Source of the DNA: Escherichia phage wV7
DNA length: 64,000 bases
Sequence record: NC_019505.1
Strand: one strand, 5' to 3'
Made by a program: the position numbers and the translations under genes. The notes under the pieces are model-generated. The model did not search any database. It worked only from the letters and a program-made list of their open reading frames with translations, and was not told where the DNA came from. Position 1 is the first letter of the stretch. The number at the start of each line of letters is the position of its first letter. This document shows positions 5,970 through 62,999 of the stretch, piece after piece.

Positions 5970-7535
5970 ATGACTATCAAAACTAAAGCTGAACTTTTGA
6001 ACAAATGGAAGCCATTACTGGAAGGTGAAGGTTTACCGGAAATTGCTAATAGCAAACAAGCGATTATCGCTAAAATCTTTGAAAACCAGGAAAAAGATTT
6101 CCAGACAGCTCCGGAATATAAAGACGAAAAAATTGCTCAGGCATTCGGTTCTTTCTTAACAGAAGCTGAAATCGGTGGTGACCACGGTTACAATGCTACC
6201 AACATCGCTGCAGGTCAGACTTCTGGCGCAGTAACTCAGATTGGCCCAGCTGTTATGGGTATGGTACGTCGTGCCATTCCTAACCTGATTGCTTTCGATA
6301 TTTGCGGTGTTCAGCCAATGAACAGCCCGACTGGCCAGGTATTCGCGCTGCGCGCAGTATATGGTAAAGATCCAATCGCTTCCGGCGCTAAAGAAGCATT
6401 CCACCCAATGTATGGTCCAGATGCAATGTTCTCTGGTCAGGGTGCTGCTAAGAAATTCGCTGCTTTGAAAGCAAGTGATACTCTTGAAGTCGGAACTATT
6501 TACACTCACTTCTTCCAGGACACTGGTACTGTGTATCTGCAAGCTACAGAAGTTAAGCAAATTGATACTAGTGCAAATGATGCAGCTAAATTAGATGCTG
6601 AAATCAAGAAACAAATGGAAGCTGGTGTACTGGTAGAAATCGCTGAAGGTATGGCTACTTCTATCGCTGAACTTCAGGAAGGTTTCAATGGTTCTACCGA
6701 TAACCCATGGAATGAAATGGGCTTCCGTATCGATAAACAAGTTATCGAAGCTAAATCTCGCCAGCTGAAAGCTGCTTACTCTATCGAATTAGCACAAGAC
6801 CTCCGCGCTGTTCATGGTATGGATGCTGATGCTGAACTGTCTGGTATTCTGGCTACCGAAATTATGCTGGAAATCAACCGTGAAGTTGTTGATTGGATTA
6901 ACTACTCAGCACAGGTTGGTAAATCTGGTATGACCCTGACTCCGGGTTCTAAAGCTGGTGTATTTGACTTCCAGGACCCAATCGATATTCGTGGTGCTCG
7001 CTGGGCTGGTGAATCCTTTAAAGCTCTGTTGTTCCAGATTGATAAAGAAGCAGTTGAAATCGCTCGTCAGACCGGTCGTGGTGAAGGTAACTTCATTATC
7101 GCTTCCCGTAACGTAGTTAACGTTCTGGCTTCAGTTGATACCGGCATTTCTTATGCTGCACAGGGTCTGGCAACTGGCTTTAACACTGATACTACCAAGT
7201 CAGTATTTGCTGGTGTTCTGGGTGGTAAATACCGTGTATATATCGACCAGTATGCTAAACAGGATTATTTCACTGTAGGTTATAAAGGTCCGAACGAAAT
7301 GGATGCTGGTATTTACTACGCTCCATATGTAGCTCTGACTCCACTGCGTGGTTCTGATCCGAAGAACTTCCAACCAGTAATGGGATTCAAAACTCGTTAC
7401 GGTATCGGTATCAACCCATTTGCAGAATCCGCTGCTCAGGCTCCGGCTTCTCGCATTCAGAGCGGTATGCCTTCTATCCTGAACAGCCTTGGTAAGAACG
7501 CTTACTTCCGCCGTGTATATGTTAAAGGTATCTAA
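5970..7535 (+). CDS. 23: Major capsid protein gp23 (521 aa)
   Basis: Sequence MTIKTKAELLNKWKPLLEGEG... matches recalled T4 gp23; length 521 aa. Confidence 0.95.
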   Translation: MTIKTKAELLNKWKPLLEGEGLPEIANSKQAIIAKIFENQEKDFQTAPEYKDEKIAQAFGSFLTEAEIGGDHGYNATNIAAGQTSGAVTQIGPAVMGMVRRAIPNLIAFDICGVQPMNSPTGQVFALRAVYGKDPIASGAKEAFHPMYGPDAMFSGQGAAKKFAALKASDTLEVGTIYTHFFQDTGTVYLQATEVKQIDTSANDAAKLDAEIKKQMEAGVLVEIAEGMATSIAELQEGFNGSTDNPWNEMGFRIDKQVIEAKSRQLKAAYSIELAQDLRAVHGMDADAELSGILATEIMLEINREVVDWINYSAQVGKSGMTLTPGSKAGVFDFQDPIDIRGARWAGESFKALLFQIDKEAVEIARQTGRGEGNFIIASRNVVNVLASVDTGISYAAQGLATGFNTDTTKSVFAGVLGGKYRVYIDQYAKQDYFTVGYKGPNEMDAGIYYAPYVALTPLRGSDPKNFQPVMGFKTRYGIGINPFAESAAQAPASRIQSGMPSILNSLGKNAYFRRVYVKGI

Positions 7536-10480: not shown

Positions 10481-10510
10481 TTCAAAATGAAGAAAGGGGC
10501 CGAAGCCCCT
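10481..10510 (-). terminator. Terminator-like hairpin after hoc
   Basis: On the transcribed strand GGGGC-TTCG-GCCCC directly after hoc stop, followed by a U-rich tract. Confidence 0.55.
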
Positions 10511-14451: not shown

Positions 14452-14506
14452 ATTAAAAAAGGCCCAACCAAAAAGGAAGGGCCAAAACTATAGACTAAAG
14501 GTCACA

Positions 14507-14674
14507 CTATAGCAAAAGTTGTGTTTCATTTAATTGTTCTTCCGAACTTTCTGAAACTGGTAGTTCTTTAATGTAATTATAGCAAGGCCCAGGATGTACA
14601 GGACCTTTGTCTGTTTCAACAACCAATGCAGAATCGATTGGAGTTTTACAGACAACACAAATCTTATCTGACAT
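14507..14674 (-). CDS. Small hypothetical protein (55 aa) with CxxC...C motif, below the ORF-track size cut-off
   Basis: ATG preceded by GAGGAG; translation MSDKICVVCKTPIDSALVVETDKGPVHPGPCYNY...; late-promoter box upstream at 14700-14707. Confidence 0.45.
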   Translation of the reverse strand: MSDKICVVCKTPIDSALVVETDKGPVHPGPCYNYIKELPVSESSEEQLNETQLLL

Positions 14675-14699
14675 GATTGTCTCCTCTGAATTATATATC

Positions 14700-14707
14700 T
14701 ATTTATA
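14700..14707 (-). promoter_or_regulatory. T4 late promoter box TATAAATA (minus strand)
   Basis: Reverse complement reads TATAAATA about 25 nt upstream of the 55-aa ORF start. Confidence 0.4.
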
Positions 14708-14797
14708 ACCCCATCTTAAAGCGCATTTCTTGTACAAGCTTTAAACATGCTTCCATTTCTGCTAAAAGTCTAAATACTTCTTTATAATTTGTCATAT

Positions 14798-27353: not shown

Positions 27354-27376
27354 CATAGCCTCTCTAGTGTTTATTC

Positions 27377-27384
27377 TATTTATA
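27377..27384 (-). promoter_or_regulatory. T4 late promoter box TATAAATA upstream of alt
   Basis: Reverse complement reads TATAAATA about 20 nt upstream of alt start. Confidence 0.5.
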
Positions 27385-27389
27385 AAATT

Positions 27390-27407
27390 AAAGGCCCGAA
27401 GGCCTTT
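27390..27407 (-). terminator. Hairpin after the 62-aa ORF, upstream of alt
   Basis: Transcribed strand AAAGGCC-TTCG-GGCCTTT followed by AATTTTAT. Confidence 0.5.
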
Positions 27408-27594
27408 AGTAATCTAGTGGTAAGAGAGTACGATATATTTCAAACTTTGGTCCTTTTTCATAGGCATCAAATGTTTCTGTAAATTTATTGTAAGCATATG
27501 CATCTACAAATTCGAGAATGACTTGTGATACAGAAGTAGAAACATCTCCACCTTCTTTTTGAGCAATGACAATTGTTTCTAAGTAAGCTTTCAT
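27406..27594 (-). CDS. Hypothetical protein (62 aa) between gene 30 and alt
   Basis: ATG overlaps ligase stop (ATGA); acidic small protein. Confidence 0.55.
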   Translation of the reverse strand: MKAYLETIVIAQKEGGDVSTSVSQVILEFVDAYAYNKFTETFDAYEKGPKFEIYRTLLPLDY

Positions 27595-30156: not shown

Positions 30157-30611
30157 AGAGAGTCTCTTAATAGGTTTAACACATCAATAAATTCAGCTTC
30201 GGTTAGTATTGTATCATCTTTTGTTAGACCACTAGCCATGCTATGCTTCAAAACTTTTCCTTTCGAGGCTAGTAATGCATCACGAAAGCCCTTGTTTTGA
30301 ATCGCTGCTTCAAAATATGCATTTGTGTACAACTCTTTCCACGCTGGTGAGTATCTTGAAAACGGAACTCCAAGCCAGAAGAGGGTCCCACGGTCCTGAG
30401 CTCTTGCATAAGACCTTCCAGCTTGTTGGGCGGCAAGTCCGGATAACCCAAATATACGTCTTTGCTGCTCAACATTTTTCACCTTGCACCCTTGGAGAAA
30501 TCCTTCAAGACCTCCAAATTGGATACCATCCATAACAAAAGGCCATTGAGCGAAATTACTTAATGCACACGATGGCCATCTAAAATTGCTTCTAATCTCT
30601 AACTCAGGCAT
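30153..30611 (-). CDS. NADAR (YbiA/DUF1768)-like protein (~152 aa, 30.3-like position)
   Basis: LSNFAQWPF...DG...F..GLEGFLQGCK resembles the YbiA/NADAR core; ORF-track start 30617 is TTG, ATG at 30611. Confidence 0.6.
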   Translation of the reverse strand: MPELEIRSNFRWPSCALSNFAQWPFVMDGIQFGGLEGFLQGCKVKNVEQQRRIFGLSGLAAQQAGRSYARAQDRGTLFWLGVPFSRYSPAWKELYTNAYFEAAIQNKGFRDALLASKGKVLKHSMASGLTKDDTILTEAEFIDVLNLLRDSL

Positions 30612-30810
30612 TTTCAATGCTTATAATTTCAACATCAGCCCAATGACCATAGCAAGGAAGACGAAATTCAACTGGCCAGTTAGGGTCCTTTTCTAATATA
30701 ATAGACTTAACTTGTGGTTCTTCATGTTCATCAGTATATGGATTTTTATCTGTTACTTTATATGTGACCTTAATGTACTGAATTCCAAAAATCTTATTAA
30801 TTATATTCAT
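30604..30810 (-). CDS. Hypothetical protein (68 aa)
   Basis: ATG start; tightly packed with neighbours. Confidence 0.5.
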   Translation of the reverse strand: MNIINKIFGIQYIKVTYKVTDKNPYTDEHEEPQVKSIILEKDPNWPVEFRLPCYGHWADVEIISIENA

Positions 30811-31004
30811 ACTAATTCCTTTAATCCGTAAATAGGAGATAATTCATCACCCATACGAAGGTCTTCATTTCCATCTACCCAGGAAACAATATAAGCCTCT
30901 TTTATTTGAACACCACTCCATTTAAATGGAGGTAGAACCTTAGAAATTAATCCAGGTATACCAACTCCCTTTAATTCAACAGTTTGACCTAAAAAGAATT
31001 TCAT
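30807..31004 (-). CDS. Hypothetical protein (65 aa)
   Basis: ATG start overlapping upstream stop. Confidence 0.5.
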   Translation of the reverse strand: MKFFLGQTVELKGVGIPGLISKVLPPFKWSGVQIKEAYIVSWVDGNEDLRMGDELSPIYGLKELV

Positions 31005-31291
31005 CAGAACCTCATCTGAAAGCCATGTGATTTAACATTACCGCCGCCAATATCAGAAATATTAATTTCACGCGCAATTGAAGGGTCAATGTCAATTTCA
31101 CGATTAAGTTTAGCGATAGCTAAAGTATCACGCCCATTTACTGTACGGAATTCTAAAGGACAAACCACATCAACATAATTTTTAATCGATTCACTGGTAG
31201 GTTGCAAATGAGCAGGAAGGTCTTTAGGCGCCTTAGAGAAAACAACTTCACAGAAATTTTTGCGGGTATCAAAATAAGTAGTCATAAACAT
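31004..31291 (-). CDS. Hypothetical protein (95 aa)
   Basis: ORF track extends to 31342; ATG at 31291 is preceded by GAGGAAAA. Start moved. Confidence 0.5.
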   Translation of the reverse strand: MFMTTYFDTRKNFCEVVFSKAPKDLPAHLQPTSESIKNYVDVVCPLEFRTVNGRDTLAIAKLNREIDIDPSIAREINISDIGGGNVKSHGFQMRF

Positions 31292-31307
31292 AGTATTTTC
31301 CTCAGTA

Positions 31308-31321
31308 AGGGGCCGAAGCCC
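31308..31321 (-). other. Intergenic C(UUCG)G hairpin
   Basis: Transcribed strand GGGGC-TTCG-GCCCC between two minus-strand ORFs. Confidence 0.45.
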
Positions 31322-31331
31322 CTGTTTTATT

Positions 31332-31697
31332 TTAAATATCAAATTCGTTAAGAACTACATCAAAGATTGCTTCAAGATGCTCAGGTTTAGCTCTGTTACT
31401 CAGAATATGACGAATCCAAGTTTTAACCAAAAGCTTGCGATTATCACCATTCCAGCAAGGATGAGTCCCTAAATCGCGTTGACGAAAATCATCATCCAGA
31501 GCGATTTTGAAGTTTGAACCTTCCATTGTGATTGAAACCGTGATGCCATTTTCAAATCGCATATAAACGTAGTTAGGAGTCATATACTGTTCAATTTCGC
31601 ATACTGATCCATTTTGATGTTTCCAAAGGCAGATAGTATCAATAGAACCTGCAATACCATTAGAAACATATTTACGTTCAAAGTTGATGTAGTTCAT
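31332..31697 (-). CDS. Hypothetical protein (121 aa)
   Basis: ATG start; intact ORF. Confidence 0.55.
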   Translation of the reverse strand: MNYINFERKYVSNGIAGSIDTICLWKHQNGSVCEIEQYMTPNYVYMRFENGITVSITMEGSNFKIALDDDFRQRDLGTHPCWNGDNRKLLVKTWIRHILSNRAKPEHLEAIFDVVLNEFDI

Positions 31698-31765
31698 TTT
31701 TATTCTCCGAGATGTTTAATTGCGGTACAGGTATATAATATCATATCCTGTACCAAAGTAAACAA

Positions 31766-32098
31766 TTATTTTACTACTTTCCAGTGCTTCATGTCAAGTT
31801 TACCAACTTTTTTCATCTTCTCAATCAAACGTTCGGCACGTTGGCGAGCTGTAACATAATACCATTCGCCTAATTCATTTTGTTCAATTTTTCCAACGAT
31901 TACTGTATTCAATTCATAAATCCAACCAGTAAAGAAATTATGAACTTGAATTGTAAAGGTGAAATCTGTTCCCATACCTTCTGTTGTTTCTACTTCAATA
32001 ATATCACCTTCAACTGCCATTAAGAACCACATAGTTTCATCATATTTACCATTGAAGCATTTAGTTTTAACTGCAGCGTTCAGATTAATCGTTTTCAT
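31766..32098 (-). CDS. Hypothetical protein (110 aa)
   Basis: ATG start; intact ORF. Confidence 0.55.
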   Translation of the reverse strand: MKTINLNAAVKTKCFNGKYDETMWFLMAVEGDIIEVETTEGMGTDFTFTIQVHNFFTGWIYELNTVIVGKIEQNELGEWYYVTARQRAERLIEKMKKVGKLDMKHWKVVK

Positions 32099-32172
32099 TT
32101 TATTCTCCTTTGTTTGTGTAAGATAATACTATCACAAAGGAACCATACTGTAAACAACTTTGTGCAATCTTT

Positions 32173-32203
32173 GGAAAATAAAAAAGGACTCCCGAAGGAG
32201 TCC
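32173..32203 (-). terminator. Rho-independent terminator (minus strand)
   Basis: Transcribed strand GGACTCC-TTCG-GGAGTCC followed by TTTTTTATTTTCC, 5 nt after the 58-aa ORF stop. Confidence 0.7.
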
Positions 32204-32208
32204 TCAAC

Positions 32209-32385
32209 TTATGCTTTCTGCTTACCAAAACGAGAAGCATCATCTCGAAGAACCGCACGTGCTCGGCGCATGATCTTCTCAACAGTTTGATTGATACGAG
32301 AGTTCGACCCACGCTTGTAACCAGCGCGTTTAGAATCACCAACTTTCTTTTCAACTGCTTTCTTTGCTTTAACTTGTTTTGCCAT
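32209..32385 (-). CDS. Small highly basic protein (58 aa; MAKQVKAKKAVEKK...)
   Basis: ORF track starts at 32427; internal ATG at 32385 preceded by AAAAGAG; K/R-rich, terminator follows. Confidence 0.5.
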   Translation of the reverse strand: MAKQVKAKKAVEKKVGDSKRAGYKRGSNSRINQTVEKIMRRARAVLRDDASRFGKQKA

Positions 32386-32674
32386 TATAAATTCTCTTTT
32401 AAATGAAAATGCAGGACTTATTGGCATTGCCTGCGCAAGCCCTCAAGGGGGAACATAGGTTTTGTATATTTACCGACAGGATAACCATAAACCTCGTCAA
32501 CATACCACCAAGACTTACACAGATAACACTTTTCTGACGCATGATAGTAACATTCAAGAGGTACACCATAAAACTGCCGGGGTCTTAAAACTATAATGAT
32601 TCGCAAATCATTAATCAGACAGTTCGATGGCTCCTCGATTTTAGCTCACACTAAGGCAGTGAATCTCCAATAAA

Positions 32675-32923
32675 TTACTTCAGTGTTACCACAAAGTGAC
32701 GAACTGCTTTTCGTGCAGCAGAAGCCAGAGGCTTAGCATACTTAAGTTCATCTTTTTCCTGAAGCTCAGCAGCTAATGCAGTTTGAGCAGGATTTAGATG
32801 TTTGAAATAACGCAGGATTTCAAGAGCTTCGGCTTCAACATCAATAGATGCGCCATAGTTTTCGTGACCATTATTCCATGCGTTTCGTTGCAGTTCAAGA
32901 GCGTGTTGTAATTGTTTAATCAT
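32675..32923 (-). CDS. rIII: RIII lysis-inhibition accessory protein (82 aa)
   Basis: Length 82 aa and position next to gene 31 as in T4. Confidence 0.75.
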   Translation of the reverse strand: MIKQLQHALELQRNAWNNGHENYGASIDVEAEALEILRYFKHLNPAQTALAAELQEKDELKYAKPLASAARKAVRHFVVTLK

Positions 32924-33062
32924 TTAAAAATTCTCGTTAGAGATTAAAACTCGGTAGTCACGTTCTTCTGAATTTCATCTTCTTTCGACAGATCTCTCAG
33001 TTGTAGACTACCACATAGAATTGTTCGGTTAACTTATTATTCCGACACCCAATTCATATTAT

Positions 33063-33070
33063 TATTTATA
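33063..33070 (-). promoter_or_regulatory. T4 late promoter box TATAAATA (minus strand) between 31 and rIII
   Basis: Reverse complement reads TATAAATA immediately after gene 31 stop. Confidence 0.4.
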
Positions 33071-35498: not shown

Positions 35499-35500
35499 AT

Positions 35501-35701
35501 TTACCTCACATAATTTTCTTCGAGCCAATCAATAACATCCAACGCATTATCAAAAGTTGAACCATCTACTTTGTCTTCTGTTTCATAATCAAGAACATCT
35601 AAACCTACTCTTCCATCAACAATAGGCCATAAACAAAATAGATATTTCTTTTCTTTTTCAATTTTATCACAAAGACGATAAATCTTTTCTATGTTATTCA
35701 T
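35501..35701 (-). CDS. Hypothetical protein (66 aa, cd.4-like)
   Basis: ATG start; intact ORF. Confidence 0.5.
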   Translation of the reverse strand: MNNIEKIYRLCDKIEKEKKYLFCLWPIVDGRVGLDVLDYETEDKVDGSTFDNALDVIDWLEENYVR

Positions 35702-62257: not shown

Positions 62258-62269
62258 TAACTATACCAC

Positions 62270-62422
62270 TCAATTAGTTGACTTTGTTATAATATCATCA
62301 GACGCTTGATTTGTAAACTGGTCTGTGTTATTTTCTTCAAAAATTTTTTCTACGAATTCCTTGAACGACTCACGTTCCTGAGCTACATTATGCTCGATTA
62401 CCATTTCAAGATTATGACTCAT
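62270..62422 (-). CDS. Possible small ORF (50 aa) coupled to arn stop
   Basis: ATG overlaps arn stop (ATGA); below the ORF-track cut-off; acidic; no SD assessed. Confidence 0.3.
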   Translation of the reverse strand: MSHNLEMVIEHNVAQERESFKEFVEKIFEENNTDQFTNQASDDIITKSTN

Positions 62423-62697: not shown

Positions 62698-62780
62698 AGA
62701 CCTTCCCCTTATGTTTCTGTTTGCGATTAGATTCTTTAAACGCTTTCTTCTTATCCTTATGAACAGAAGCTTTATTAAAA

Positions 62781-62999
62781 TTATGTTTTGCGACTAAATT
62801 GTTCATAGTGCTGAATTACCTCTCTTAAACATTTGCATGTGAATGAAAACTTTTTAGCTACACCACATTCAAATATATGTTCTCTTAAATCACGTGTATC
62901 GGTATATCCCATCTCAACAATAAAATGCCGTATTAAATTTTTATCTTTATCATTGAGAGAATTAAAATAGTCAGATTTTGAATTAATTTCCCTGGCCAA
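62781..62999 (-). CDS. Hypothetical Cys-containing small protein (start uncertain; TTG at 62999 or ATG giving 44 aa)
   Basis: No ATG at the ORF-track start; first in-frame ATG is 28 codons downstream. Confidence 0.35.
   Translation of the reverse strand: MAREINSKSDYFNSLNDKDKNLIRHFIVEMGYTDTRDLREHIFECGVAKKFSFTCKCLREVIQHYEQFSRKT

Follow-up and report, generated by a model that had tools for sequence, protein, structure and literature searches.

What are the six small ORFs that lie between a NADAR-like gene and rIII in Escherichia phage wV7, and what might be the role of the very basic 58-aa protein that one of them encodes? The window (the whole stretch analyzed, 64,000 nt of NC_019505.1) belongs to a Tequatrovirus: the region matches 812 T4-like records and, over 3 kb, E. 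coli O157 typing phage 7 with 100% identity. As an earlier note on this sequence described, the six ORFs occupy 30604–32385, between the NADAR-like gene and rIII; all are on the minus strand, as are the other features of the locus given below. The comparison with T4 genes 30.4 to 30.9 that the note proposed answers the first part of the question, since the products are 95.6 to 98.5% identical to T4 gp30.4 to gp30.9 at the protein level, and 30.4 to 30.8 are collinear with T4 in both order and spacing. By these sequence matches, the six ORFs are orthologues of T4 30.4, 30.5, 30.6, 30.7, 30.8, and 30.9. Clear orthology to characterized T4 30.x proteins was to have counted against the earlier note; the orthology is clear, but "characterized" applies to 30.5 only. 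Genes 30.4 to 30.9 are long annotated in T4 and mostly uncharacterized, and the observation as originally posed adds little alone because those annotations were made decades ago.

The 30.4 orthologue (30604–30810; 68 aa; 95.6% identical to T4 gp30.4; phrog_2042, E = 7e-35) shares 8 nt at its 3′ end with the start of 30.3/adfN, and is preceded by the 30.5 orthologue (30807–31004; 65 aa; 98.5% identical; phrog_1690). The 30.6 orthologue (31004–31291; 95 aa; 97.9% identical; phrog_2153) begins at an ATG with GAGG before it; the TTG at 31342 from the mechanical ORF call was rejected, as it is not the T4 start. Further upstream lie the orthologues of 30.7 (31332–31697; 121 aa; 98.3% identical; Pfam PF06919, E = 5e-53; phrog_1582) and 30.8 (31766–32098; 110 aa; 98.2% identical; Pfam PF06019, E = 7e-59; PHROG 1507). 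Across 30.4 to 30.8, the E-values of the PHROG matches range from 1e-33 to 7e-66, and the two Pfam matches exceed their gathering thresholds. The 30.9 orthologue (32209–32385; 58 aa; 98.3% identical; phrog_1427, E = 3.5e-31 over residues 1 to 58) is followed in the upstream direction by rIII, the lysis-inhibition accessory gene (32675–32923), whose product is 100% identical to T4 rIII (phrog_1457).

For none of the six proteins does a match in Pfam, PHROG, NCBIfam, or PDB indicate a function, and their earlier description as being of unknown function is essentially right, save that 30.5 alone has published biochemistry: the T4 protein copurifies with the host polyphosphate kinase Ppk and activates the defense protein bNACHT11 (bioRxiv 10.1101/2024.12.17.629029). 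These interactions are T4 data, and the wV7 protein differs at one residue (V32I). The neighboring 30.3 is the anti-DarTG NADAR protein AdfN, which reverses DNA ADP-ribosylation and is needed only against DarTG1. The block is thus part of a stretch of the T4 genome whose functions are only now being assigned, and the findings on 30.3 and 30.5 make the remaining five small proteins reasonable candidates for host takeover or counter-defense; by analogy with these neighbors, the 30.4 to 30.9 products are most likely small effectors of that kind. In the supplements of PMC9697503, T4 30.4 to 30.8 are classed as early in both RNA and protein, and 30.9 as early in RNA; in a supplement of PMC11879866, CRISPRi-ART knockdown scores all six T4 genes as "Not Fit" except 30.6, which is borderline ("Semi-Fit"; score 0.72, p = 0.067). 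Taken with the present comparison, these published results define the block as dispensable, early-expressed accessory genes between 30.3/adfN and rIII.

How are these genes transcribed? Because all six lie on the minus strand, the 58-aa ORF, which had been described as the last of the run, is instead the first to be transcribed, immediately downstream of rIII. The description of the ORFs as tightly packed holds for 30.6/30.5/30.4/30.3, the only ones that abut or overlap, but fails at three junctions: a 110-nt spacer with a terminator and a promoter between 30.9 and 30.8, a 68-nt spacer with a promoter and a hairpin between 30.8 and 30.7, and a 40-nt spacer with a hairpin between 30.7 and 30.6. 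Instead of a single run, these signals suggest a block split into about four transcription units by cassettes of the PeSL (promoter-early stem-loop) type known from T4-type hyperplastic regions (Arbiol et al. 2010, PMC2839356; Comeau et al. 2014, PMC4122927). The first unit would comprise 31, rIII, and 30.9 and be closed by a terminator; the second would run from an early promoter into 30.8; the third, from an early promoter and hairpin through 30.7 to a further hairpin; and the fourth would contain 30.6, 30.5, 30.4, 30.3, and beyond. By its predicted signals, 30.9 belongs to the 31/rIII transcription unit and not with the other five genes.

PeSL cassettes, whose recombination and mini-circle formation have been studied by inverse PCR (PMC2839356), combine intergenic stem-loops able to end upstream transcription with promoters of the TTTACW-N17-TAYWAT type (the early-promoter consensus in the T4/PST group; PMC4122927) and flank small nonessential ORFs. 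An intergenic stem-loop together with a sigma70-like early promoter directly before the SD and ATG of such an ORF occurs twice here, at 32123–32205 before 30.8 and at 31713–31764 before 30.7, both composites being recognized from sequence features alone. The former joins the 30.9 terminator to a predicted T4-type early promoter at 32123–32154 (GTTTACA ... TAGTATTAT), which would start the 30.8 unit; the annotation of phage ASO78A has an early promoter at this site, and most T4-like lineages have a GTTTAC box downstream of the 30.9 terminator. In the latter, a predicted early promoter (GTTTAC-N17-TATTAT, 31735–31763) lies within a strong hairpin (−20.1 kcal/mol, z-score −4.8, with 0 of 200 shuffles as stable). 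The 30.7/30.6 intercistronic hairpin (31308–31323; GGGGC-UUCG-GCCCC) has no U-run on the coding strand and folds at −12.1 kcal/mol (z-score −1.6); it is annotated as a terminator in phage ASO78A, and a second identical copy occurs at 10495–10510. From its sequence, it is probably an mRNA-stability or processing element rather than an efficient terminator. Where 30.8 is present in T4-like loci, its distance from 30.9 is mostly 101 to 137 nt, with some loci at about 305 to 327 nt.

The terminator of the 31/rIII/30.9 unit (32175–32205) had been placed 5 nt after 30.9; a strong and conserved terminator does follow the gene, but its stem starts 3 nt past the stop codon. It consists of a 9-bp stem with a UUCG loop (GAGGACUCC-UUCG-GGAGUCCUU) followed by U6AU4, that is, a stable GC-rich hairpin and a U-run on the transcribed strand at a gene end, and folds at −16.4 kcal/mol (z-score −3.95), a value matched by none of 200 shuffles. 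A generic scan of the 5-kb region finds 3 terminator-like sites against 3.2 expected, a number not above chance. Evidence from relatives is stronger: a terminator lies right after the 30.9 stop in all T4-like lineages examined except Pseudomonas phage PspYZU05 (L007), even as its stem differs among lineages (GGGACUCC, GGGAGAC, GGGAACC, GGCGGUGGUU, GGGGCUCC). We regard it as a genuine, evolutionarily conserved, predicted intrinsic terminator; it carries a canonical U-run, and besides being part of a PeSL-type cassette it is therefore also a plain intrinsic terminator. Early transcription of 30.9 would result from read-through initiated at upstream promoters, and late transcription probably also occurs, from a late-promoter consensus (TATAAATA, 33063–33070; a sequence match only) that abuts the gene 31 stop codon and would yield a late rIII-30.9 transcript. 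Every 30.9 transcript would then be stopped at the gene's own conserved terminator.

Is the basic ORF a gene at all? The T4 counterpart (NP_049823; UniProt P17310; PHROG 1427) shares 57 of 58 residues with the wV7 protein, with one V5A substitution; the two genes also share their place downstream of rIII, their terminator, and the early promoter that comes next. UniProt P17310 formerly bore the name [quoted passage not shown] By listed organism, the family spans T4-like enterobacterial phages and Pseudomonas phage PspYZU05 (997 phage records); among 1.84 billion proteins, it has 15 representatives and none from a recognizably cellular (nonphage) source. The gene stands directly after rIII (or after gene 31 where rIII is absent) and before 30.8/30.7, and the order rIII-30.9 is kept in Tequatro-, Gapriver-, Karam-, and Jiaodavirus and in metagenomic relatives; in the distant lineages L007, L008, and L011, 30.9 forms a self-contained promoter-ORF-terminator unit.

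That the ORF might go untranslated, the conserved entity being an RNA or DNA signal, is hardly credible. The wV7 gene does have a weak SD (GAGA), and the T4 proteome supplement (PMC9697503) lists 30.9, like the tRNAs, as "NA, early," presumably because no protein class was assigned; this missing class is weak evidence either way, since a protein with 33% K/R would yield few usable tryptic peptides. Against it, dN/dS is 0.12 to 0.55 while dS reaches 0.5 to 1.4, i.e., purifying selection with synonymous sites near saturation; 66 protein clusters, and distant lineages with strong SDs (e.g., AAGGAG in L011), keep the same frame, start, and stop; and indels are always multiples of three and confined to the Lys/Ala tail. 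All relatives retain the MAKQ start, and an upstream in-frame ATG at 32427 (giving 72 aa) was rejected because the extension is not conserved. On this comparative sequence evidence, gp30.9 is a genuine, conserved protein translated from the MAKQ start; with its terminator conserved as well, the finding is to that extent largely ordinary. It is nevertheless far more conserved than most accessory ORFs, though dispensable in the laboratory, and a defined ligand would explain its retention in nearly a thousand T4-like genomes.

What might that ligand be? The Lys/Arg content, put at about 30% in the earlier note, is 19 of 58 residues (32.8%), with a net charge of +14 and a pI of 11.4; this fraction is the highest among the 137 ATG-initiated ORFs of at least 50 aa in the window (the next is 29%, and the 99th percentile 21.9%). 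The protein is laid out as a disordered Lys/Ala-rich tail (residues 1 to 18), the motif SKRAGYKRxSN(x)RI, an amphipathic helix (residues 29 to 53), and an FGKxKA end. Columns of the SKRAGYKRxSNxRI motif and of the RARAV(L)R helix are invariant or nearly so among 32 sequences, and the core motif is retained in the distant homologues P0067 to P0076; extra Lys/Ala/Pro-rich tails occur in distant homologues (e.g., ...APKKAKSRKPSATKAAKAAKKI and ...SSSKPKAKKA). AF2 predicts the helix at a pLDDT of about 90 and the tail below 50; the hydrophobic moment of the helix, 0.59, is reached by 0.8% of shuffles.

The account of the locus toward which we lean, if with reserve, is that the six genes are T4 30.4 to 30.9 orthologues in about four units with effector-like products, and that gp30.9 is a polyanion binder expressed from a structured leader. 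Its helix would bury the hydrophobic stripe by self-association or docking, and the basic arm and motif would bind a polyanion, most probably RNA and possibly DNA. Nucleic acid binding is plausible on sequence grounds; the earlier label, "histone-like / nucleic-acid-binding," is a statement about composition only. The wV7 protein has no Pfam hit at E ≤ 0.1, and its family (32 members, Pfam E ≤ 10) gives only scattered hits to unrelated families; the best result of a profile search against PDB, a helix of SlmA (E = 0.29), is not significant. Small basic ribosomal or ribosome-associated proteins (bS21, bL34 to bL36, Sra, phage S21) resemble gp30.9 in size (about 6.5 kDa), in a pI above 11, and in joining a disordered basic arm to a helix, but searches of Pfam, NCBIfam, and PDB return no match to these or other ribosomal protein families. 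Nor does Pfam or PDB reveal homology to HU/IHF, H-NS, Hc1, or histone H1. A late virion-internal or DNA-condensing "histone-like" protein, for which the composition and the late transcripts expected from the consensus before rIII would speak, is therefore very improbable, given this want of homology to HU, H1, or IP proteins and the early class of the T4 transcript. To our knowledge, gp30.9 is not among the T4 head proteins, and we know of no capsid-targeting N terminus, as in the T4 internal proteins, in its sequence.

The single amphipathic helix of the model would equally fit binding to a host protein, and gp30.9 could accordingly be an inhibitor or adaptor whose helix docks while the basic arm meets an acidic surface, the ligand not being a nucleic acid. 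We judge this somewhat unlikely, though it deserves to be taken seriously: the neighboring T4 30.5 acts on a host protein (Ppk), the helix is strongly amphipathic with a conserved hydrophobic stripe, the invariant SKRAGYKR resembles a specific interface more than generic charge, and dispensability on laboratory E. coli is usual for accessory and counter-defense genes. The extreme net charge for 58 residues argues the other way, as do the low-complexity Lys/Ala/Pro-rich tails gained repeatedly in distant homologues, which are typical of polyanion binders.

The noncoding rIII-30.9 spacer (32386–32674; 289 nt), which forms the 30.9 leader, is a mosaic of conserved RNA modules: B (32629–32668), C (32579–32618), D (32512–32540), E (an H-type pseudoknot, 32453–32506), and F (32411–32451), followed by a weak anti-SD/SD hairpin (32391–32410) that is AU-rich in the window. 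A spacer of 120 to 416 nt is found in all 47 loci with both genes, in a genome about 93% covered by ORFs, and its modules have been shuffled from genus to genus. Over its last 121 nt, identity to Gaprivervirus/Mosigvirus-type loci is 90%, compared with 70 to 71% for the 30.9 CDS and 83% for the rIII CDS; by this measure the spacer is, unexpectedly, more conserved than either flanking gene. Such a structured leader may, we tentatively suggest, set the processing, stability, or translation of the 30.9 cistron.

Module E comprises P1, GAC(G)/(U)GUC, and P2, in which UUxxxGGU inside the P1 loop pairs with ACCxxxAA, located after a conserved GUUAAAUAUCCAAA. In 18 distinct sequences, 83% of cells are paired (35 to 58% in slid controls), with 39 double-change cells against at most 9 in the controls, and the score is reached by 0 of 500 shuffles; the leader thus contains an H-type pseudoknot with covariation, its support coming from relatives. 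Searched with a covariance model, the window yields one copy of module E (61 bits), in which P1 is preserved and P2 weak, pairing as either GGU/ACC or a shifted UAUGG/CUAUG. In wV7, the three-tier hairpin of module G (32953–33012) precedes the rIII start codon by 69 nt; in Jiaodavirus/Karamvirus-type phages, module G precedes that of 30.9 by 66 to 68 nt. For module G, RNAalifold gives 16 pairs in 6 sequences, 7 with compensatory changes and 0 broken. Relatives also carry module A, a 140-nt multihelix structure. The fold of the whole 30.9 leader is not better than that of shuffles (z-score −1.5). No spacer module has an Rfam hit at gathering score in the window, six related loci carrying modules A, E, F, and G give no relevant Rfam hit at E ≤ 1, and we found no description of the structured modules around rIII in Rfam or in the papers searched.

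Could gp30.9 bind this adjacent RNA (modules E, F, and G), as a translational autorepressor in the manner of T4 gp32 or the ribosomal proteins S15 and S4, or as a partner or chaperone of small RNAs cut from this spacer? The conserved spacer, present wherever rIII accompanies 30.9, would fit such a role, as would the covariation in the pseudoknot and hairpins, which includes G-U pairs that work on the sense strand only. There is precedent in the T4 gene 32 mRNA leader, whose pseudoknot, 67 nt before the start codon, mediates translational autoregulation by gp32 (PMC3014915). The likeness to that leader lies in an H-type pseudoknot tens of nucleotides upstream of the start of a nucleic-acid-binding-type protein and in an A/U-rich stretch containing UUAAA after it; module E shares no sequence similarity with the gene 32 leader and is portable, and gp30.9 is unrelated to gp32. 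We consider such binding improbable, since modules are shuffled, lost, or replaced among lineages while the RNA-facing motif of gp30.9 stays invariant, and in L007, L008, and L011 only a promoter and a short leader precede 30.9. In the window module G belongs to rIII, elsewhere to 30.9, and module E also occurs inside the tRNA array of an unrelated viral contig that lacks a 30.9 gene, which argues against module E as a 30.9-specific operator. In the window, moreover, P2 is weak, and among 95 translation-initiation regions that of 30.9 ranks as average in predicted accessibility (0.49; 55th percentile).

It is doubtful that the 31-rIII and rIII-30.9 spacers form a portable structured-RNA field with gp30.9 as its RNA-binding partner (autoregulator or chaperone), which would amount to an unrecognized RNA-protein regulatory unit of T4-like phages. 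Irrespective of gp30.9, the conserved, covarying modules around rIII are a more interesting by-product of the analysis than the six genes themselves and, if functional, would add new RNAs, acting in cis as regulators or standing alone, to the best-studied phage family. In the field reading, modules sit at a set distance before a start codon or lie between tRNAs. In wV7, the rIII-30.9 spacer is 45 nt longer than that of T4 because T4 has deleted module D.

All six small ORFs described in the earlier note are present, and all are encoded on the minus strand: 30.4 (30604–30810, 68 aa), 30.5 (30807–31004, 65 aa), 30.6 (31004–31291, 95 aa), 30.7 (31332–31697, 121 aa), 30.8 (31766–32098, 110 aa), and 30.9 (32209–32385, 58 aa). 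Because of this orientation, the 58-aa basic ORF, which the earlier note placed last, is transcribed ahead of the other five, directly downstream of rIII (32675–32923, minus strand). The tight packing ascribed to the run holds for three junctions, which are the only ones to overlap (30.6/30.5, 30.5/30.4, and 30.4/30.3), but not for the remaining three, which have spacers of 110, 68, and 40 nt. The surrounding 3-kb region is 100% identical to Escherichia coli O157 typing phage 7 and matches 812 records of T4-like phages. Comparison with T4 genes 30.4 to 30.9, as the earlier note had proposed, identifies the six ORFs as T4 orthologues (95.6 to 98.5% identity between products and the T4 reference proteins; 100% for the flanking rIII and 98% for 30.3). 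The six genes are real but already annotated in T4; the earlier note had weighed its reading against orthology to characterized T4 proteins, and here the orthology is clear, whereas published biochemistry exists for 30.5 alone. The six ORFs each fall into a single PHROG of unknown function, and in Pfam, 30.7 and 30.8 match families bearing their names, as 30.3 matches PF08010. An NCBIfam search returned no matches, and PDB sequence searches with all six proteins found no chain below an E value of 0.18. For gp30.8, six homologues were retrieved, and an AlphaFold2 model from three sequences was unusable (pLDDT 55). Within the adjacent 30.3 (adfN), an out-of-frame internal ORF of 68 aa (30269–30475, minus strand) corresponds to the annotated T4 30.3' ("internal translation in a different reading frame").

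The strong terminator that had been attributed to the basic ORF is present as a sequence feature, 3 nt (rather than 5 nt) past the stop codon: GAGGACUCC-UUCG-GGAGUCCUU followed by U6AU4, with a fold of −16.4 kcal/mol (z = −3.95) that none of 200 shuffles equaled in stability. A terminator follows the 30.9 stop codon in all T4-like lineages examined except Pseudomonas phage PspYZU05, although its stem varies by lineage (GGGACUCC, GGGAGAC, GGGAACC, GGCGGUGGUU, and GGGGCUCC). Beyond the terminator lies a predicted T4-type early promoter (GTTTACA...TAGTATTAT; 32123–32154, minus strand), also annotated at the same site in phage ASO78A. A second predicted early promoter (GTTTAC-N17-TATTAT; 31735–31763, minus strand) precedes 30.7 and sits within a strong hairpin, which folds at −20.1 kcal/mol (z = −4.8). 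These stem-loop and early-promoter composites match the published description of the promoter-early stem-loop (PeSL) cassette of T4-type phages, in which a stem-loop and a sigma70-like early promoter flank nonessential ORFs in hyperplastic regions (PMC2839356, PMC4122927); for the T4/PST group, the consensus reads TTTACW-N17-TAYWAT (PMC4122927). The 30.7–30.6 junction carries a GGGGC-UUCG-GCCCC hairpin that lacks a U-run. As a 16-nt hairpin with a C(UUCG)G tetraloop, AGGGGCUUCGGCCCCU, it occurs in two identical copies in the window (10495–10510 and 31308–31323, minus strand).

Upstream of rIII, a late-promoter consensus, TATAAATA (33063–33070, minus strand), directly abuts the stop codon of gene 31 and would yield late transcripts of rIII and possibly 30.9. 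A MotA-box-like middle promoter site (~33461) stands in front of gene 31, and an early promoter lies further upstream (~35219). Within the rIII–30.9 spacer, a search for a 30.9 promoter of sigma70, early, MotA-box, or late type gave no consensus match. From this layout, 30.9 is taken to be the final cistron of a unit containing 31 and rIII, and the five other ORFs would fall into about three further transcription units, with the activity of promoters and terminators deduced from their sequences. Distant lineages, unlike the window, have a spacer promoter for 30.9: in PspYZU05, the 30.9-like gene is immediately preceded by an early promoter, and in two metagenomic loci (L008 and L011), 30.9 is a self-contained promoter–ORF–terminator cassette.

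The feature most worth following is a set of conserved structured-RNA modules around rIII, just outside the reported run of ORFs. The rIII–30.9 spacer (32386–32674, minus strand) spans 289 nt and holds modules B, C, D, E, and F; in all 47 loci having both genes, it is 120 to 416 nt long. ORFs of at least 70 aa cover ~93% of the window, leaving only a handful of ORF-free gaps longer than 150 nt. Although the spacer is noncoding, its conservation exceeds that of both flanking genes: between the window and Gaprivervirus/Mosigvirus-type loci, its final 121 nt are 90% identical, as against 70 to 71% for the 30.9 coding sequence and 83% for rIII. The spacer is a mosaic, with the order and presence of modules varying between T4-like genera. 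A peptide-like block within it (...YVDEVYGYPVGKY...KPMFPL...), present in a 62-aa TTG-initiated ORF of the window, in the old 97-aa T4 annotation, and in protein P0059, was rejected as coding because the frame is not maintained between relatives, 45 nt are deleted in T4, and there is no Shine-Dalgarno (SD) sequence or start codon; its conservation is instead accounted for by an RNA pseudoknot.

This pseudoknot, module E (32453–32506, minus strand), is of the H type and is supported by covariation. Across 18 distinct sequences, 83% of cells pair, versus 35 to 58% with slid partners; double-change cells number 39, versus at most 9 in the slid controls; and the covariation score is 0.518, versus at most 0.156 in controls, a value reached by none of 500 shuffles, although all of these statistics are somewhat inflated since the structure was derived from the same 18 sequences. 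G-U pairs assign the structure to the sense transcript. In the window, the first stem (P1) is intact and the second (P2) is weak, and a covariance model detects a single copy in the 64 kb. An exact-core scan of IMG/VR returned 19 sites, 16 of which lie between rIII and 30.9. A full-length copy scoring 52 bits (6798–6852, minus strand, in locus L053) exactly fits the 58-nt gap separating tRNA-Asp from tRNA-Pro, within a 12-tRNA array on an unrelated 55-kb viral contig, of which the 12.5 kb examined contain no homologue of 30.9, rIII, 31, or 30.8. This tRNA-array copy suggests that module E is a free-standing RNA unit. The possibilities that it is T4 rnaC or rnaD, or that it has copies in the T4 tRNA region, were dismissed, as the covariance model found no match there.

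Module G (32953–33012, minus strand) is a three-tier hairpin located 69 nt upstream of the rIII start codon, with 16 pairs, of which 7 are compensatory and none broken. In Jiaodavirus/Karamvirus-type phages, it is found 66 to 68 nt upstream of the 30.9 start codon; its occurrence before rIII here and before 30.9 elsewhere is the behavior of a portable 5'-leader element. Module A, a multihelix RNA of ~140 nt, occupies the rIII–30.9 spacer of many T4-like phages (e.g., L006 2206–2339, L009 3688–3822, L036 1246–1379, and L022 1207–1349) but is found neither in the window nor in T4. Of the 42 pairs that RNAalifold predicts for it, 21 show compensatory changes; the place of the module within the spacer differs between genera. 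On sequence inspection, it bears no resemblance to T4 rnaC/rnaD or the T4 tRNA region. None of the modules, in the window or in related loci, matched Rfam, and weak hits to the S15 leader and tsr31 (E ~0.9) were dismissed as chance.

A structured leader of this kind would affect processing, stability, or translation. Autoregulation of 30.9 through the leader pseudoknot is an attractive idea by analogy with gene 32, which according to a review may be the sole case of a viral pseudoknot used in translational autoregulation (PMC3014915), but the portable nature of the modules and the tRNA-array copy speak against it. Folding of the whole leader was no better than that of shuffles (z −1.5). A strong switch sequestering the 30.9 SD in the window is not supported thermodynamically: despite an AU-rich anti-SD/SD hairpin, the predicted accessibility of the initiation region is average. 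Other stretches of at least 150 nt without an ATG-initiated ORF of 70 aa or more on either strand occur at 14452–14797, 27357–27590, 35499–35693, 62258–62418, and 62698–62982, and may hold small genes or other noncoding elements.

The composition claimed for the basic protein, about 30% Lys/Arg, is borne out: gp30.9 has 19 such residues out of 58 (32.8%), the highest fraction among the 137 ATG-initiated ORFs of at least 50 aa in the window, with a net charge of +14 and a pI of 11.4. Homologues were found only in T4-like phages (66 clusters from 5.8 billion proteins searched, and 997 phage genome records); a full HMM scan of 1.84 billion proteins yielded 15 representatives, one of which, a repetitive 617-aa sequence, is evidently spurious. 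The gene order 31–rIII–30.9–30.8–30.7 is kept across Tequatro-, Gapriver-, Karam-, and Jiaodavirus and metagenomic relatives. The MAKQ start is conserved, unlike the upstream in-frame extensions (72, 97, or 102 aa) that some annotators adopted. Compared pairwise with 14 relatives, 30.9 gives dN/dS values of 0.12 to 0.55 (dS 0.5 to 1.4, the near-identical T4 excepted), which places it under purifying selection as a protein; by these sequence criteria, 30.9 is a coding gene.

Invariant or nearly invariant positions make up a motif (S18-K-R-A-G-Y-K-R25, S27-N28, R30-I31, and Q33) followed by R41-A-R-A-V-L-R47 and F53-G-K55, all preceded by a Lys/Ala-rich N terminus of variable length. AlphaFold2, given a 32-sequence alignment, predicts a disordered tail at residues 4 to 18 (pLDDT below 50) and a single helix at 29 to 53 (pLDDT about 90). 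This helix is strongly amphipathic (hydrophobic moment 0.59, equaled by 0.8% of shuffles), with a conserved hydrophobic stripe of I31, V35, I38, M39, A42, V45, L46, and F53; distant homologues retain the motif along with the beginning of the helix and add Lys/Ala/Pro-rich C-terminal tails. A PDB match to a SlmA helix (E = 0.29) and Pfam matches of family members to Arc_C and T3SS_ATPase_C were treated as chance. The nucleic-acid-binding reading in the earlier note is plausible from composition, while its histone-like reading has no homology support. We propose that the basic arm and motif would bind a polyanion, most probably RNA, and that the amphipathic helix would self-associate or dock; the leading alternative is a host protein as the ligand of gp30.9.

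In T4, time-resolved omics place 30.4 to 30.8 in the early class for both RNA and protein, and the 30.9 row reads "NA, early," as tRNA rows do (PMC9697503 supplements). We read this as an early transcript without protein classification; since a protein with 33% K/R gives few usable tryptic peptides, the entry does not argue against translation. In a genome-wide CRISPRi-ART screen, fitness was unaffected by knockdown of 30.4, 30.5, 30.7, 30.8, or 30.9; the result for 30.6 was borderline ("Semi-Fit," P = 0.067), and gene 31 scored strongly (PMC11879866 supplement). Host polyphosphate kinase copurifies with T4 30.5, which is one of three T4 activators of the defense protein bNACHT11 (bioRxiv 10.1101/2024.12.17.629029), and the neighboring 30.3 encodes the NADAR enzyme AdfN, required only when DarTG1 is present (bioRxiv 10.1101/2025.11.20.689424). 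Literature searches by gene name and accession for gp30.4 to gp30.9, for rIII/30.9 intergenic elements, and for T4 sRNAs returned only the bNACHT11 preprint and genome-annotation tables, with nothing on the function of 30.4, 30.6, 30.7, 30.8, or 30.9. The block would encode accessory host-directed effectors.

Several database entries for gp30.9 are anomalous. Orthologues in several GenBank phage records (e.g., hits H14, H20, H41, H51, H52, and H57; protein P0018) and in one UniRef entry are labeled "1,4-alpha-glucan (glycogen) branching enzyme, GH-13-type," an obvious annotation artifact propagating between records. Protein P0024, from a contig of 570 nt, has the C-terminal 48 residues of gp30.9 fused to a fragment of an E1-E2 ATPase and is probably an assembly chimera. 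A frameshifted gp30.9 (P0039) comes from a 166.6-kb contig labeled Shigella flexneri, evidently the genome of a T4-like phage that was deposited under the name of its host.
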